From the IMG/VR virus record IMGVR_UViG_3300028196_001473: DNA of 64,000 bases; one strand, given 5' to 3'. A model generated the notes under the pieces. It was not told the origin of the DNA. It worked only from the letters and a program-made list of their open reading frames with translations, and did no database searches. Shown here piece by piece: positions 43,222 to 58,830 of this stretch (position 1 is its first letter; each line of letters begins with the position of its first letter). Position numbers and translations under genes: made by a program. The DNA is from a virus.

Positions 43222-43707
43222 ATGATATTATTTAATAATCTTAGATACAAAATATTCTGTGATATGGATGGTGTTCTTGTCGATTTCGAGAAGGGTTACT
43301 TTGAACTCACAGGTTTAGATATATCGGGTCAGTGGCACACCACACCTGAATTTTGGAACCCTATAAATGAAAAGGGTCAGGAGTTTTGGGACAATTTAGA
43401 ATGGATGAAGGACGGTAAAAAGTTATGGTCGTATATTGAAGAATATTATCCCGTACTATTGTCCTCCCCATCTCGTAACGGATACGGATCGAGAAAAGGT
43501 AAAAACTCTTGGGTTAATAGAGAGTTGCCAGGAGTACCACTTCTATTGGAGTACTCAAACAATAAAAAGAAATATGCAGGTGAAGACTGTATATTAATTG
43601 ATGATAGGGATTCTAACATAGAACAGTGGATATCTAATGGTGGTATAGGTATTTTACATAAAGATTTTGATACTACCGTAATTGAATTAGAAAAATTAGG
43701 ATTATGA
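43222..43707 (+). CDS. HAD-family 5'(3')-deoxyribonucleotidase-like protein
   Basis: FCDMDGVLVDF (DxDxV), LLSSP, ILIDDR. Confidence 0.85.
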   Translation: MILFNNLRYKIFCDMDGVLVDFEKGYFELTGLDISGQWHTTPEFWNPINEKGQEFWDNLEWMKDGKKLWSYIEEYYPVLLSSPSRNGYGSRKGKNSWVNRELPGVPLLLEYSNNKKKYAGEDCILIDDRDSNIEQWISNGGIGILHKDFDTTVIELEKLGL

Positions 43708-50276: not shown

Positions 50277-51242
50277 ATGATTAGAACCGCAGAATGTGTA
50301 TCCCCAATGCACCCAGACAAGATGTGTGATAGAATTTCGGACACATTATTAGACCTACACTTAGAACAAGACCCTAATTCACGATGTGCAATTGAGACAT
50401 GTGGTGGTTTAGGTGAGGTTTACATTACAGGAGAAGTTACCTCTAACGCGATAGTAACAAGAGAAAATATTGTAAAGGTGGTTCACGATATAACTACTGA
50501 CGATTCAATTAATGTAATCATTAATATTAATACCCAATCACCTGAGATATCACAAGGGGTTGACGTTGGTGGTGCGGGTGATCAGGGGATCATGATAGGA
50601 TATGCATGTAATGACAACGAACAAAAATTACCACAAGAATATTTTTTAGCACGTGAACTGAATAAACTTGTATACCAATTTTTTCCATATGATGGTAAAA
50701 CCCAAGTTACAATAGACGGACTTAAGGTACGAGTCGTATGTTCATTTCAAAATGCACCTAAAAATAAATTAGAGGAATTGGTTGTTTTATTCTTTGAAGA
50801 AAGATATGATAAATATACCATACAATCATTACATTGTAACCCTGCAGGAGATTGGAACATTGGTGGTTTCACTGCAGATGCAGGATTAACAGGTAGAAAA
50901 CTCGCAGTAGATAACTATGGACCGCGTGTACCTATTGGTGGTGGTGCGTTTAGTGGTAAGGACGCAACTAAGGTTGATAGATCGGCAGCATATATGGCAA
51001 GAAGAATTGCTGTGGACTATCTAGAGTTATATGGTGGTGATGAGTGTATTGTAACCTTGGCGTATGCTATAGGATACGACCAACCATTACAAGCAACAGC
51101 AGACTGTAACGGACATATCGTACCTATCGAAGGTTACGACTTAACCCCTCGGGGTATAATAGATTTCTTAGAGTTAAGGAATCCGATTTACAAAGAAACT
51201 TCAATGTTTGGTCACATGGGATGTGATTTTACGTGGAAGTAG
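50277..51242 (+). CDS. metK: S-adenosylmethionine synthetase
   Basis: ECVSPMHPDKMCD, GAGDQG, DGKTQV, DAGLTGRK, GGGAFSGKDATKVDRS. Confidence 0.96.
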   Translation: MIRTAECVSPMHPDKMCDRISDTLLDLHLEQDPNSRCAIETCGGLGEVYITGEVTSNAIVTRENIVKVVHDITTDDSINVIININTQSPEISQGVDVGGAGDQGIMIGYACNDNEQKLPQEYFLARELNKLVYQFFPYDGKTQVTIDGLKVRVVCSFQNAPKNKLEELVVLFFEERYDKYTIQSLHCNPAGDWNIGGFTADAGLTGRKLAVDNYGPRVPIGGGAFSGKDATKVDRSAAYMARRIAVDYLELYGGDECIVTLAYAIGYDQPLQATADCNGHIVPIEGYDLTPRGIIDFLELRNPIYKETSMFGHMGCDFTWK

Positions 51243-54438: not shown

Positions 54439-54540
54439 TTACCTAAACTATTTAATCTTATACCCCTAAAACTTGACTTTTCCGTTGTTTTTAGTTATAT
54501 TTTTGTATACTTATATTAATACACTAATAATATCTAAAAA

Positions 54541-54825
54541 TTGAGAAATAAATTGTTTGACGACTTTGAAACACCTTCCGAATTTTATAATTTTGACGAT
54601 GAATTTAAACAAAGTTTAGATAATTCATACGACATATTCACGGGTAGAAGGACCTATGTTGAAATTATATGTGATTCTGAAAAACCTCACTTCTTTTTCT
54701 TTGAACCTACCGAGACCCCATCTAAAGAGGATATCGAGGATCTTGTTTATATATACGAGGACTATGAAGAATACGAAAGATGTGGAGAACTAATGAGTTT
54801 AATCAAATGTCCAATTGAAAGATAA
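54541..54825 (+). CDS. Acidic hypothetical protein
   Basis: C-terminal EDYEEYERCGEL motif. Confidence 0.5.
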   Translation: MRNKLFDDFETPSEFYNFDDEFKQSLDNSYDIFTGRRTYVEIICDSEKPHFFFFEPTETPSKEDIEDLVYIYEDYEEYERCGELMSLIKCPIER

Positions 54826-55006
54826 GATAATATATAGGTTAGTTACAGGTATCCTAATCGTGTTAGTTATTTTAATTGTTGGGGACTACATAATCGCGTA
54901 TAGCGAGGGTAGACCAATCAATGAAAAAATAATTAACTTAATTCACATAACTATTGCTGGTTTAATTGGAATTATAGGTACTTATTATGGTATGAAAAAT
55001 AAATAA
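54815..55006 (+). CDS. Two-TM microprotein
   Basis: Two hydrophobic segments; GLIGIIGTYYG. Confidence 0.55.
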   Translation: MKDKIIYRLVTGILIVLVILIVGDYIIAYSEGRPINEKIINLIHITIAGLIGIIGTYYGMKNK

Positions 55007-55007
55007 A

Positions 55008-55163
55008 ATGAGAACACAATTCCTACAAAAATTAATAGAACAGTTTCCGAATGATTATCAATTAGGTCAGGCGATTAGAAAGTATCACCAATTGAGATCA
55101 GGGGGAAAAATAAAACCAGATTGCGAGAAGATTGTATTAAGATCAACCTTCGACGATAACTAA
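55008..55163 (+). CDS. 51-aa hypothetical protein (not in ORF track)
   Basis: Manual translation MRTQFLQKLIEQFPNDYQLG... Confidence 0.5.
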   Translation: MRTQFLQKLIEQFPNDYQLGQAIRKYHQLRSGGKIKPDCEKIVLRSTFDDN

Positions 55164-55172
55164 GTAAAAACA

Positions 55173-55316
55173 ATGAGTCACGAACAACAAACTAATGGAA
55201 CTCCTCAACTACAAGGAGAAAGAAACTCTTTCAATCAGAAAGTAGGTTCTTATAGTATATTGGGTAGAACTAAGAAAGTTCTATGGTCTAACAGACGTAG
55301 GTGGAGAAACATATAG
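55173..55316 (+). CDS. 47-aa basic hypothetical protein (not in ORF track)
   Basis: Manual translation ending KKVLWSNRRRWRNI. Confidence 0.5.
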   Translation: MSHEQQTNGTPQLQGERNSFNQKVGSYSILGRTKKVLWSNRRRWRNI

Positions 55317-55404
55317 ATTGATAAAATACCTCCTTTTCTAATAGGGAGATATGGTTAGTACTCTCGAGTACATAATATTAGGATTAAATACATTTAAATA
55401 TAAT

Positions 55405-56229
55405 ATGGGAAATTGGTTTAAGAAGGCCGGAAAAACTATTAAAAAGTCTGCCGATAAAGTTGCAGATAAGGCGAAAGACACAACTAACACGGTTGTCAAA
55501 GAAACTACTAATGCGGCGAACACCGTTGCGAAAGAAACTACTAATGCGGCGAACACCGTTGCGAAAGAAACCACTAAGGTGGCTAACACAGTTGCCAAAA
55601 CAACTACAAATATTTATACTGACTCTAAAAAGGCAGTGGTAAAAACAACTAACGTAGTTGCTAAAAACACTGAGGAGGCCGCGAAACAAGGGTTGGATGT
55701 TGCATCTGATACTTGGAAGGAAGGAAGTTCACAAGCAATTGAGTTTGCAAAAGATGGATTAGAGGCGGTTGAGGACGCTGCGGAGTCAGCAGTTGATTGG
55801 TTAGATGAGAACGCATGTTACATAGGATTGAATATGGCATTAACAACAGGTTGTGTTGCGTACTTCACACCTAAACCAGCACCGGCAGATCCAGGTACCG
55901 TTACATCAACCACTATTAGTGCGACTATGTTGGCGGCGATGGCGTCGGTAGGTCAGAAAGTTGCGATAATGGTAGTATCTAAAGAGGTTGGTAAACTTTT
56001 AGCTGATGGTATATTTTTAATACCAGGTGTGAAAGGAAAGTGTGATAAAGAATTATTAACAAGAGTTCTTACTAATGTAGTTGGTAAGGCGAACCCTATA
56101 TATGCTACAGCAGCACTATCAACACCAGCGGGAGTTGGATTGTTTGTAGGGTCAGTAGTTTCACCAATTGTGGCAACACTAATTTGTGAGGGTGTGGTAC
56201 CAAATGGGTTCTCTAAATTAGACGATTAA
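55405..56229 (+). CDS. 11-mer amphipathic repeat protein with hydrophobic C-terminal domain
   Basis: Start likely ATG 55405 (MGNWFKKAGKTIKK); KETTNAANTVA repeats; Gly/Ala-rich hydrophobic C-terminal helices. Confidence 0.6.
   Translation: MGNWFKKAGKTIKKSADKVADKAKDTTNTVVKETTNAANTVAKETTNAANTVAKETTKVANTVAKTTTNIYTDSKKAVVKTTNVVAKNTEEAAKQGLDVASDTWKEGSSQAIEFAKDGLEAVEDAAESAVDWLDENACYIGLNMALTTGCVAYFTPKPAPADPGTVTSTTISATMLAAMASVGQKVAIMVVSKEVGKLLADGIFLIPGVKGKCDKELLTRVLTNVVGKANPIYATAALSTPAGVGLFVGSVVSPIVATLICEGVVPNGFSKLDD
55498..55571 (+). repeat. Exact 33-bp tandem repeat (2 copies + partial), in frame
   Basis: aaagaaactactaatgcggcgaacaccgttgcg at 55498 and 55531, then aaagaaac. Confidence 0.9.
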
Positions 56230-56281
56230 AAAAAAATATAAATATTTTTATTATTTTATTGATTTAATAAAAAATGTTTTA

Positions 56282-56289
56282 TATATTTG
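56282..56289 (+). promoter_or_regulatory. Bacteroidota-type -7 box driving an ORF-free region
   Basis: TATATTTG with TTG about 20 nt upstream. Confidence 0.65.
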
Positions 56290-56295
56290 TACCAA

Positions 56296-56802
56296 CAAAA
56301 GGGATAGGTTGAACAAAATGATACCGATTAACCCCTAACGTTCTTTAAAATATTGGAAAGTGACAGGATAACGATTGATCATCAATTTCCTGAGTGTATT
56401 GGAGAATAAACCTTTGGAAGGAGGTTAATCCACACCGACAGTAGACACGTTCTACTATTCTGGCTGAAGTTCGCAAGACTGATGTTGGGGTATCTTGACA
56501 GAGAAGAAGTGGTTGACATTAAAAACAGCAAGATAGCTAACTTTCAAACTCATTGTGAGACGATCGAAAGATCAACCTCACCTTGTGACTGAATAACCCT
56601 TCTGTTTGGGGGTAAAGTAAACTATAAGGGGTTGTACCCGCATTATTAGATTAACAGTCTAATGTTGAACTAAAGTAAAATTTAGTATAGTTGTATGAGT
56701 AAAAGACACAACAGAATGATCATCTAAGGCTAGCATACCTTAGTACACATTTACTTTCCTTTTTTATTAAACCCTTTTCTGGTAACAGTTAAGGGTTTTT
56801 TT
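56296..56802 (+). ncRNA. Candidate large structured non-coding RNA (~500 nt), family unknown
   Basis: No ORF of 60 aa or more; promoter and terminator at the ends; at least 7 helices incl. GATC-GAAA-GATC, AGTTC-GCAA-GACT and long-range TAACCCCT/AGGGGTTG. Confidence 0.7.
56769..56802 (+). terminator. Intrinsic terminator
   Basis: AAACCCTTTTCTG-GTAA-CAGTTAAGGGTTT plus T-run. Confidence 0.75.
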
Positions 56803-56834
56803 ATGCGGTAATATCAAAGAATTCCTATTATAAT

Positions 56835-56865
56835 TTTGTATATTCTAAAAAATATATTATATTTG
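56835..56865 (+). promoter_or_regulatory. Bacteroidota-type promoter (TTTG-N19-TATATTTG)
   Basis: Both elements with canonical spacing, before ATG 56880. Confidence 0.75.
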
Positions 56866-56879
56866 ATGAAATTTAAAGT

Positions 56880-57071
56880 ATGAAAATTTTTGCAGTTAAA
56901 AACGGTATAAGGTATTTCAGAGAAAGATTAGGTTCTACAGACAATAAAGAGAGAAAGATCTATTACAGAAATGAACTTTATAGGTTAGAAGAAAAACTAT
57001 ATAATTTACAATTTAAAGAAGACGAAAAACATTATGGTGAGATTATTCAGGAACGAGAAGGGACAGATTAA
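56880..57071 (+). CDS. Hypothetical protein
   Basis: First ORF after the promoter. Confidence 0.5.
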   Translation: MKIFAVKNGIRYFRERLGSTDNKERKIYYRNELYRLEEKLYNLQFKEDEKHYGEIIQEREGTD

Positions 57072-57225
57072 ATTATTGGAAGGTGAGGTCGAACTTGTGG
57101 GTTCAGACGGTAAAAAGATAAGACACCACCCAACTAAATTCTCAATATGTGGGTGCGGAAAAAGTAAAACAATATTATGTGATGGTTCACACAAACCAAA
57201 AGAAGATGAAAGTAAAGAAAGTTGA
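57034..57225 (+). CDS. CDGSH iron-sulfur domain protein
   Basis: ICGCGKSKTILCDGSH (C-x-C-x2-S-x3-x-C-D-G-S-H). Confidence 0.85.
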   Translation: MVRLFRNEKGQIKLLEGEVELVGSDGKKIRHHPTKFSICGCGKSKTILCDGSHKPKEDESKES

Positions 57226-57493
57226 TACACCATTAGAGGTTGTTTCCAAGGAAGTTCAAAGATGGATTGATAAAACAGAAGATGAGAACGCAAAGTTTCC
57301 TCTTCATGCAGTTTTAGAAATAATTAAAACCTTATCTGTAGAGGAAGAAAAGTTTGCGGGTAAAATGTACGATTATGGTGCAAGTGGTTGGTTTGGATAT
57401 ACCACGGGTAGAAAGTTTTATAAATCTGAATTTTTGGGGGATGGAAAAAAGAAAACCAAAGAAACTGAAGAGTTGGGAGTTTGTCAAGGATAA
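57206..57493 (+). CDS. Hypothetical protein
   Basis: Start likely ATG 57206 within ORF 57149..57493. Confidence 0.5.
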   Translation: MKVKKVDTPLEVVSKEVQRWIDKTEDENAKFPLHAVLEIIKTLSVEEEKFAGKMYDYGASGWFGYTTGRKFYKSEFLGDGKKKTKETEELGVCQG

Positions 57494-57661
57494 ACGACAC
57501 AACCTATCAACACTAAAAGACTACGATGATCCATCGAAATTTTATTACCAATTTGATGGGTATGTTTATTACCCAGCGGTACATAAGATAGATTTTGATA
57601 TGTTACATCAGGGTTAGTTATGTTATTTAAGTTAAAATAAGAATCTCAAAATAAATAAATT

Positions 57662-57841
57662 ATGAATCACTGGTTAAATGAGGGGAAACAAATACTATCT
57701 AAACCCCAAGTAGACGAACAAGAAATAGATGAAATTAATGGTATAGAAAGAAAACCCACCTTGGGTTGTATGATCATAGTTATAGGTACAATTATATTTT
57801 GGTCTATGGTTTATTGGTTATATAATCTAATTATCAGTTGA
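57662..57841 (+). CDS. 59-aa C-terminal TM microprotein (not in ORF track)
   Basis: Manual translation; hydrophobic C-terminus. Confidence 0.45.
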   Translation: MNHWLNEGKQILSKPQVDEQEIDEINGIERKPTLGCMIIVIGTIIFWSMVYWLYNLIIS

Positions 57842-57883
57842 TTATTTATAAAAAAAATCATATATTATTAATAACTAAAAAGA

Positions 57884-58249
57884 ATGATAATGGGAAAGAC
57901 TAAATGGTTTAGAAATATTAAAGATAAGGGTTATTTAGATTCGACCTTCATATTGTTAGGGTTAGCATTAGTATTATCAGTTATTATGTTAGTTGGTTCA
58001 TTAACTAATGGTTATGAATCACAACCAATCAAAGATAGTCGACAAAATGACACTGTATTTGTAACCGACACAATTTACGTAGATCAACTAATAAACTTAG
58101 ATAGGTTAGATAGTATAGAAGAGATATTATACTACGAAGTGGTTGATAATCAATTATATTTGTATACAAAGAAAGATTCCATTCAGGATGAAATAGAAAG
58201 ATACCATTACATAAAAAGTTTAGACTCCGAAAGTGAAGGGTGGGATTAA
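57884..58249 (+). CDS. Membrane-anchored hypothetical protein
   Basis: N-terminal TM; DTVFVTDTIYVD repeat typical of Bacteroidota exported proteins. Confidence 0.55.
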   Translation: MIMGKTKWFRNIKDKGYLDSTFILLGLALVLSVIMLVGSLTNGYESQPIKDSRQNDTVFVTDTIYVDQLINLDRLDSIEEILYYEVVDNQLYLYTKKDSIQDEIERYHYIKSLDSESEGWD

Positions 58250-58292
58250 CTATAGTTTGTATTATAAAAAGACCAAAATAAATTAATGAACA

Positions 58293-58445
58293 ATGTCAAA
58301 ATTTAAATTCACAACAAAGAATGGTACCCATGTTTCTGCATGTGAGACTAACACTGAAGAAAAAGCGTGGTTATGGATCTCTAAAGTTAAAGACCTAACC
58401 CTAAAACAATCGAAAGATTTGTATAATATTAAAAAATTAGATTAA
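58293..58445 (+). CDS. 50-aa hypothetical protein (not in ORF track)
   Basis: Manual translation MSKFKFTTKNGTHV... Confidence 0.45.
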   Translation: MSKFKFTTKNGTHVSACETNTEEKAWLWISKVKDLTLKQSKDLYNIKKLD

Positions 58446-58455
58446 ATAAAAACAA

Positions 58456-58830
58456 ATGAGTGAAAAAAGTTACGTCCGTAAAATTGAGACTTGGACAATC
58501 TCAGCTGCAAGTGAACCGATTGAGGTTAACATAGAAGCATTAAGAAAATGTGAACCACCATATAAGGGTGATTCAGAACAAGAATTGGTAAACTATCTAC
58601 AAAACGAAGTGTGGAATGAATATGATTTTTTAGATAATGAACACAATAAAGAAGTTTATGGTGAAGATGAATTACAAGATTTAGGTATGGAAGATGCCTA
58701 TTGTTCAAATGAGTTCTTTGATTCTCGTAATAAAGGTGAGGATGCATCACTACAAGTAGGTGTACCAAATGAGGAGTGGACAAAAACAGGTGGTTTCCAA
58801 CCATTAGCATATGGAGAAAACGAATATTAA
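58456..58830 (+). CDS. Acidic hypothetical protein
   Basis: 124-aa ORF. Confidence 0.6.
   Translation: MSEKSYVRKIETWTISAASEPIEVNIEALRKCEPPYKGDSEQELVNYLQNEVWNEYDFLDNEHNKEVYGEDELQDLGMEDAYCSNEFFDSRNKGEDASLQVGVPNEEWTKTGGFQPLAYGENEY

Follow-up and report, generated by a model that had tools for sequence, protein, structure and literature searches.

A free-standing phage gene that encodes a structured non-coding RNA of roughly 460-510 nt, read from the + strand and belonging to the wider manA group, very probably lies at about 56295-56805 of the virus record IMGVR_UViG_3300028196_001473 (the window, a stretch of 64,000 nt that was analysed in full). Sequence and covariance models indicate that the 3' domain, about 40% of the whole RNA, is a distant homologue of manA RNA. 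The 5' domain (56357-56546, ~200 nt) is conserved and covarying and has no catalogued relative. Marine metatranscriptomes yield this RNA far more easily than the mRNAs of adjacent genes.

The locus and its transcription signals

No ORF of at least 60 aa was found on either strand of 56230-56879, which bears out the ORF-free stretch of about 650 nt reported in a preliminary description of this DNA. The interval is flanked by a 292-aa ORF (55351-56229) and by small + strand ORFs from 56880. The longest + strand ORF inside it is 36 aa long and is broken by a 1-nt deletion in the closest relative (L120). The G+C content was 0.40-0.42 across 56300-56600 versus 0.23-0.26 in the AT-rich flanking spacers, so the interval is indeed more GC-rich than other spacers, as had been described. 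ARAGORN found neither a tRNA nor a tmRNA at the locus, in agreement with the same description, and the only match to the Rfam tRNA model in a permissive scan of 56150-56950 was one of 19.6 bits on the - strand (E 0.28). Within the 64-kb window, no Rfam family reached its gathering score. Single-sequence folding was modestly better than that of shuffled sequences on both strands, with z of -2.6 (+) and -3.6 (-). Folding energy settles nothing and gives no strand preference; the case for a structured RNA is built on covariation.

The features of the locus are as follows.

56259..56289, + strand: promoter, TTG, 20 nt, then TATATTTG as -7 box (56282-56289); sigma-70-like match
56300..56336, + strand: P0 hairpin, AGGG (56300-03) with CCCT (56333-36); 3 of 4 pairs covary; apex of variable length
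56337..56356, + strand: linker AACGTTCTTTAAAATATTGG, apparently unpaired; nearly invariant in 15 sequences; no covarying partner found
56357..56363, + strand: closing helix, 5' strand, AAAGTGA (AAAGAGG in most relatives); pairs with 56751-56757
56364..56392, + strand: H1 hairpin, apex is the invariant palindrome TGATCA (56376-56381); stem covaries, 2 pairs
56394..56435, + strand: H2, stem, GAATAA internal loop (56404-09), hairpin, TAA, closing stem; 3 covarying pairs
56441..56455, + strand: H3 hairpin, GTAGA with TCTAC; 1 covarying pair; 100% of cells paired
56458..56490, + strand: H4, outer stem and inner hairpin with invariant GCAA tetraloop (56473-76); 5-6 covarying pairs
56493..56504, + strand: H5 hairpin, TCTT GACA GAGA; 2 covarying pairs (TT/AA to CC/GG)
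56506..56546, + strand: H6/H7 region, variable small hairpin AGC..GCT with conserved flanks, then the invariant junction ACTTTCAAACTCATT
56554..56752, + strand: manA-like domain, Rfam manA over its full length; 10 of 46 pairs covary
56555-81, + strand: manA P1, invariant GAAA loop
56589-96 and 56596-613, + strand: manA P2, CTGAATAA and then the hairpin, with TAAA after the hairpin
56621-26 with 56686-91, + strand: manA P3, encloses P3a, P3b and P3c
56724-43, + strand: manA P5, 3 covarying pairs
56751..56757, + strand: closing helix, 3' strand, TTACTTT (CCTCTTT in most relatives); pairs with 56357-56363
56769-56805, + strand: intrinsic terminator, hairpin with 13-nt arms, then T7; 5 covarying pairs, T run invariant
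56836..56865, + strand: second promoter, for the downstream genes, TTTG, 18 nt, TATATTTG; between the terminator and the next gene

Transcription is predicted to start at about 56294-56296. The TTG element and the TATATTTG -7 box were kept in all lineages having upstream sequence. The promoter is of the Bacteroidota type: the TATATTTG box fits TAnnTTTG, the Bacteroidota sigma-A consensus. That the RNA has its own promoter and terminator, as had been proposed, was supported by the conservation of the -7 box at 56282-56289 and by the covariation of the terminator at 56769-56805. The + strand was assigned because the promoter and the terminator have the same direction, all model matches are on this strand and G-U pairs make up 15 of the 110 pairs of the fold. 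G-U pairs and GNRA loops had been said earlier to favour the + strand; the RNA does carry invariant GNRA loops, and the z-scores of single-sequence folding offer no choice between the strands.

The P0 apex is longer in L164, where it holds a 20-nt insert, and is shortened or deleted in L154, L141, L149 and L148. An extra hairpin is located between the manA-like domain and the terminator in L141 (3190-3230) and L148 (2115-2150), and an insert of ~90 nt is found at the same place in L149 (3110-3270, - strand). Both the P0 apex and the gap between domain and terminator tolerate expansion. Downstream of the locus, the four small + strand ORFs at 56880-57617 (63 aa, a 63-aa CDGSH protein, 114 aa and 87 aa) overlap one another by 38-140 nt in different frames. 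All four are kept in L120 with 74-95% amino-acid identity; since they overlap and yet are conserved, their true start codons probably lie downstream of the starts given by the ORF finder.

The fold and its two domains

Fifteen distinct full-length homologues with 70-97% identity were aligned (A3), all from marine or seawater samples; these 15 represent just ~6-7 independent lineages. They were obtained from contigs with homologues of the downstream 114-aa ORF and from one metagenome scan with the invariant junction ACTTTCAAACTCATTGTGAG. The preliminary description had proposed looking for covariation in homologues, and RNAalifold on this alignment gave 110 pairs, 33 of which carry compensatory double changes. 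In the alignment of the 5' domain (A6), 13 of 50 pairs showed double changes and 98.6% of cells were paired, while slid controls gave 1-3 and none of 500 shuffles was as high. In the alignment of the 3' domain (A8), double changes were found in 10 of 46 pairs with 98.8% of cells paired, slid controls gave 0-2, and shuffles as high numbered 28 of 500 by pairs and 0 of 500 by cells. Both A6 and A8 were fitted to models and lean towards structure; counts from MAFFT alignments agree with them, at 14/50 for the 5' domain and 10/45 for the 3' domain.

Most of the helices in the preliminary description were recovered. CAGGA/TCCTG is H1 in the 15 homologues, GTAGA/TCTAC is H3, the AGTT-CGCAA-GACT hairpin is the inner part of H4 with 3 covarying pairs, GTGAG/CTCAC with its GAAA loop is manA P1, the TTAGA/TCTAA hairpin is P3b, and CTAAGG/CCTTAG is P5. 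Two other helices had to be replaced. CCGACA/TGTTGG is broken in relatives, the real helix being TTCTGGC/GTTGGGG (56458-64 with 56484-90). The long-range pairing TAACCCCT/AGGGGTTG was wrong: CCCT pairs locally with AGGG in P0, and GGGG..CCC forms the P3a hairpin of manA. The long-range pairings of an RNAalifold fold of two sequences were mostly dropped when 15 sequences were used. In the H6/H7 region, pairing is compatible in all sequences, the outer pairs are without covariation and the variable part aligns poorly.

The 7-bp closing helix has 2 covarying pairs (GTGA/TTAC versus GAGG/CCTC) and 96.7% of its cells paired, and it clamps both domains. Each of the 15 homologues contains both domains in collinear order, and no copy of one domain without the other was found. 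These observations bear on whether the locus encodes two RNAs, one of ~250 nt at the 5' side and a manA-like one of ~200 nt, which are co-transcribed and then cut apart. Canonical manA is about 200 nt long, the 5' domain can close on itself through AAAG/CTTT, and in one metatranscriptome (X18) the contigs 56308-56553 and 56537-56714 meet near the domain border. In the three other runs, however, single contigs cross that border, and the covarying helix spans both domains, so that a pair of separated RNAs has little probability.

Invariant loops are carried on covarying stems at TGATCA, GCAA, GAAA, GTTGTA, GATTAACA and the P5 loop. Loops that behave in this way usually mark tertiary or intermolecular contacts. 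When further covarying pairs between loops were sought, the candidates obtained were all weak, namely GATGT with ACATT and GTGTAT with GTACAC.

The Rfam manA model (RF01745) matched 56554-56752 on the + strand over its full length, with 49.6 bits and an E-value of 1.4e-11 in the permissive scan of 56150-56950. Four relatives scored 47.3, 44.8, 44.6 and 49.2 bits, and E-values overall were 1e-9 to 1e-12. The covariance check against Rfam that had been suggested thus returned a match that is significant yet below the manA gathering score of 55.2 bits, a score missed by every family member that was scored. In the reverse direction, a model of the 3' domain built from the 15 homologues (R3) recovered 33 canonical manA RNAs, most of them at full length, with 24-41 bits and a best E-value of 8e-7 in 1.9 Mb searched. 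Further support for homology was given by nhmmer (E 3e-10). The preliminary description had inferred an RNA of unknown or divergent class; a structured RNA it is, while a wholly unknown one it is not, as the 3' domain matches manA in both search directions.

The features of manA were compared one by one. P2 with its conserved TGAATAA 5' internal loop and TAA 3' loop is present, and so is the P3 multi-stem junction with three hairpins followed by P5. P3, P3b, P3c and P5 have 1, 2, 3 and 3 covarying pairs, respectively. The long P4 hairpin of manA, between P3 and P5, is ill-defined here: the pairs of the Rfam model are partly non-canonical; the sole alternative is a short GTTGT/ACAAC stem, which overlaps P3 and shows no double changes. 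The GGGAG/CTCCC 'pseudoknot' pairing of manA is absent, its columns being deleted or unpaired in the Rfam alignment.

Weak SAM-III (SMK box) matches of 25.8 and 22.1 bits were observed at L148:1908-1981 and L141:2986-3059, respectively (gathering score 45). They overlie P1-P2 of the manA-like domain in these two contigs, and none was found in the window. The phage encodes a SAM synthetase at 50277-51242 of the window. A SAM-III identity was rejected; these matches are most likely due to chance, driven by CCCGAAAGG and GGGGG runs. Two further divergent manA RNAs from IMG/VR were recorded at L029:6433-6599 and L054:9989-10188, with 67.6 and 51.6 bits, one of them below the gathering score.

For the 5' domain, the permissive Rfam scan gave no + strand match within 56290-56553 at E up to 10. 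The possibility that this domain is a second whole manA was considered and rejected: Rfam gives no second match, the 3' domain model gives no second full match, and a model of canonical P1-P2 (R1) scores just 3-7 bits on H1-H2. Parts of it do resemble manA. The 3' domain model aligns its own P2 onto 56397-56431 with 11.5 bits (E 0.0014 in 261 nt), and a model of the 5' domain (R2) matches the divergent manA RNAs L054 and L029 at their P2. In addition, nhmmer weakly aligns H1-H2 with P1-P2 of canonical manA members having a TGATCA loop, and the YGATCA loop of H1 also occurs in P1 of several canonical manA RNAs. By its order of elements (stem, GAATAA, hairpin, TAA, stem), H2 is a second copy of the P2-type module of manA. 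The 5' domain is accordingly read as sharing modules with manA in part, with H3-H7 having no known relatives.

Homologues, gene contexts and transcripts

The RNA was found in three gene contexts.

Context 1: 292-aa gene, RNA, orf63, CDGSH protein, orf114
Context 2: 104-aa gene, RNA, 58-aa ORF, 2OG-Fe(II) oxygenase, orf114 homologue
Context 3: 46-aa ORF, RNA, DUF932 protein

Three mutually identical IMG/VR contigs carry the whole RNA with 87% identity, and exact-pattern scans of IMG/VR with three conserved stretches gave no contigs beyond these three. No match was found when the RNA and 12 kb of the window were compared by BLAST with 50,697 phage records. The locus is absent from the nearest virus record compared (G001), the RNA is missing at the site from 14 phage contigs in which the upstream 292-aa gene has a homologue, and manA was matched at no position of four large related contigs.

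A further copy is located on a contig of 248,233 nt (C1 of G007; L170, L171 and L172), which is collinear with the window and shows patches of 74-91% identity. G007 is a MAG named 'Flavobacteriaceae bacterium'; C1 is its largest contig, and the ribosomal protein S8 gene is on a different contig. C1 has the appearance of a jumbo-phage genome that was binned together with its probable host, or of a prophage. When the 5' domain model was run against 151 Flavobacteriaceae genomes, one strong match was obtained, on the phage-like contig in G007. The phage host is likely a flavobacterium and not a cyanobacterium or gamma-proteobacterium. In another Flavobacteriaceae genome (L173, C33 of G081, about 43458-43498), a 41-nt match of the H2 / P2-type module was observed with 22.2 bits (E 0.006). 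Rfam finds no manA in it, and a weak CRISPR-repeat-like match lies ~0.8 kb downstream; this module match is probably due to chance.

The stretch was present in 20 public runs from 16 studies, 6 of which were metatranscriptomes. Contigs of four RNA runs, from four studies, were placed on 54500-58500 as follows; being assembled contigs, they show neither strand nor exact ends.

X15: contig 56314-56746, depth 17.7
X17: contig 56301-56707, depth 76.8
X18: contigs 56308-56553 and 56537-56714, depths 12.4 and 16.9
X19: contig 56326-56775, depth 145.4

The contigs start at 56301-56326 and end by 56775. Depth was 0 over the flanking 3.5 kb in the four RNA runs, save for a few short and shallow contigs of X17, whose depth was 2-3 if they lay fully on the stretch; two that fitted partly reached ~7 and ~11. 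The RNA proposed in the preliminary description was seen as contigs on 56301-56775 in four marine metatranscriptomes, with the flanking genes hardly covered. For the adjacent 601-nt coding stretch, no RNA run contained half of the sampled words (maximum share 0.33), and none of the six RNA runs with the RNA stretch appeared. DNA carry-over is a conceivable source of the contigs; the empty flanks speak against it.

It is highly improbable that the locus encodes no functional RNA and is instead a gene in decay, the remnant of a mobile element or a region coding for a small protein. Small chance ORFs, and nothing more, speak for it; the compensatory changes in 33 pairs, the conservation of 70-97% in three gene contexts and the abundant RNA contigs speak against it. 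A coding reading was discarded, every small ORF being broken by indels in relatives.

A role as a cis-regulatory leader was also weighed, in which a manA-like aptamer would sense a ligand, as in a riboswitch, and govern readthrough of the terminator. Since 2010, manA has counted as an orphan 'riboswitch candidate'. It is typed as Cis-reg in Rfam and was placed in 5' UTRs by Weinberg et al. 2010 (PMC2864571). At this locus, the terminator begins ~12 nt after the fold, and same-strand genes follow 75 nt further on. However, a separate promoter stands between the terminator and the next gene (56836-56865) and is conserved in lineages whose downstream genes differ, which argues against a leader, and the downstream genes themselves differ among the three contexts. 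No contig of the four RNA libraries covers the ~1 kb past the terminator (56778 to about 57850). Moreover, ~200 nt of extra conserved structure lie upstream of the manA-like part, and no pairing that could serve as an alternative antiterminator was observed.

Canonical manA RNAs, in turn, sit inside tRNA arrays. Those at L036:3413-3835, L119:724-1925, L118:9003-9273 and L115:6743-7013 (115-126 bits, all on the - strand) are flush with tRNA genes, at 0-2 nt; in L036 and L119, a tRNA is found on both sides of manA, inside a phage tRNA array. As manA lies flush between tRNA genes, the canonical manA RNAs also look like released RNAs, and this arrangement suggests that they would be cut out as free RNAs by tRNA-processing enzymes and would not be 5' UTR switches. 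Because the locus has its own downstream promoter, varying downstream genes and no readthrough contigs, and because canonical manA occurs between tRNAs, a leader role is improbable. On a cyanophage-type contig, a PhotoRC-II RNA (L020:5888-5981, 61 bits) was observed 1.4 kb upstream of a canonical manA on the same strand, and non-coding RNAs cluster there.

Proposed mode of action and meaning for the manA group

The stand-alone RNA resembles manA in being phage-borne and marine and in having P1, P2 with its CTGAATAA / TAA loop, the P3 junction and P5 in its 3' domain; the TGATCA loop of H1 is the P1 loop of several canonical members. It differs from manA in several respects. The 3' domain scores 44.6-49.6 bits versus 115-137 in the 17 canonical cyanophage-type members scanned, which were taken from viral contigs fetched by manA pattern, and for this reason it is regarded as a distant relative. 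In place of GGGAG/CTCCC, AAAGAGG/CCTCTTT closes a much larger fold, and a conserved 5' domain of ~200 nt stands in front. The gene is free-standing with its own promoter and terminator, and the likely host is a flavobacterium. Among the few papers on manA RNA that were consulted, none describes an extended or stand-alone form.

In a cryo-EM preprint, five manA RNAs are reported to assemble in vitro, as decamers, octamers or a 60-mer T=1 cage, with kissing loops and a GNRA loop-receptor contact as the assembly contacts; no biological role is given there (10.64898/2026.07.01.735769). In the proposed mechanism, the host RNA polymerase would start at the Bacteroidota-type promoter near 56295 and stop at the terminator at 56769-56805. 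The RNA folds as two domains held by the 7-bp helix 56357-63 / 56751-57. It would work as a self-assembling particle and not as a cis switch, as canonical manA does in vitro. The predicted subunit contacts are the invariant loops, that is, the palindromic TGATCA, the GCAA and GAAA tetraloops, GTTGTA, GATTAACA and the P5 loop. In the infected cell, such a particle might serve as a scaffold, for sequestration or as a decoy, all of which are possible.

Self-assembly was proposed because of the homology to manA and the invariant palindromic and GNRA loops; it is extrapolated from in-vitro work on canonical manA RNAs shorter than 200 nt, and no partner loops were identified. By this analogy, it is possible, and put forward tentatively, that the RNA forms assemblies of its own, which the 5' domain would modify or decorate. 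The 5' domain might also prevent or change assembly. In a more specific and somewhat doubtful form of the proposal, the RNA would be a two-domain building block of an RNA-only particle in infected flavobacteria, with a manA-like oligomer core, and the 5' domain, with its palindromic TGATCA loop and GNRA loops, would either add a second contact layer or display or bind cargo.

Alternatively, the RNA may act in trans as a monomer, for example as a protein sponge, a decoy or a base-pairing regulator, and form no larger particles, which we consider a serious though minor possibility. The extra 5' domain and the loss of the manA pseudoknot could mean a different way of working, and the invariant loops could equally bind protein. 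On the other side, the RNA has a palindromic loop of 6 nt and two GNRA loops, all invariant and all of a kind typical of RNA-RNA contacts, and in the homologous family all five manA members tested oligomerise in vitro (10.64898/2026.07.01.735769).

The preliminary description had compared the locus with the RNAs ROOL and GOLLD. Both are large, ornate RNAs of phages and bacteria and build multimers from RNA alone. The present RNA is like them in being non-coding, large, rich in helices and associated with phages, in having GNRA loops and in its probable quaternary assembly; it is unlike them in being smaller (~0.5 kb) and in its manA-based architecture. Neither Rfam model, of ROOL or of GOLLD, matched at E up to 10 in 56150-56950. 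The comparison was therefore apt in spirit, given the cages of manA in vitro, and did not hold as a match to either family.

The self-assembling two-domain RNA, if true, would be the first case of a manA-type assembly to which a functional domain has been added, and its high expression in the sea is already known. The occurrence of a manA-type RNA as a discrete and abundant transcript argues against the cis-regulatory role under which manA is catalogued. The wider manA group extends to phages probably infecting Flavobacteriaceae, and a considerable number of manA relatives in phage metagenomes appear to be hidden by the Rfam cut-off for manA. The 15 aligned sequences give concrete candidate contact loops, and the manA core can be joined to another conserved domain, of ~200 nt, by a clamp helix that covaries.
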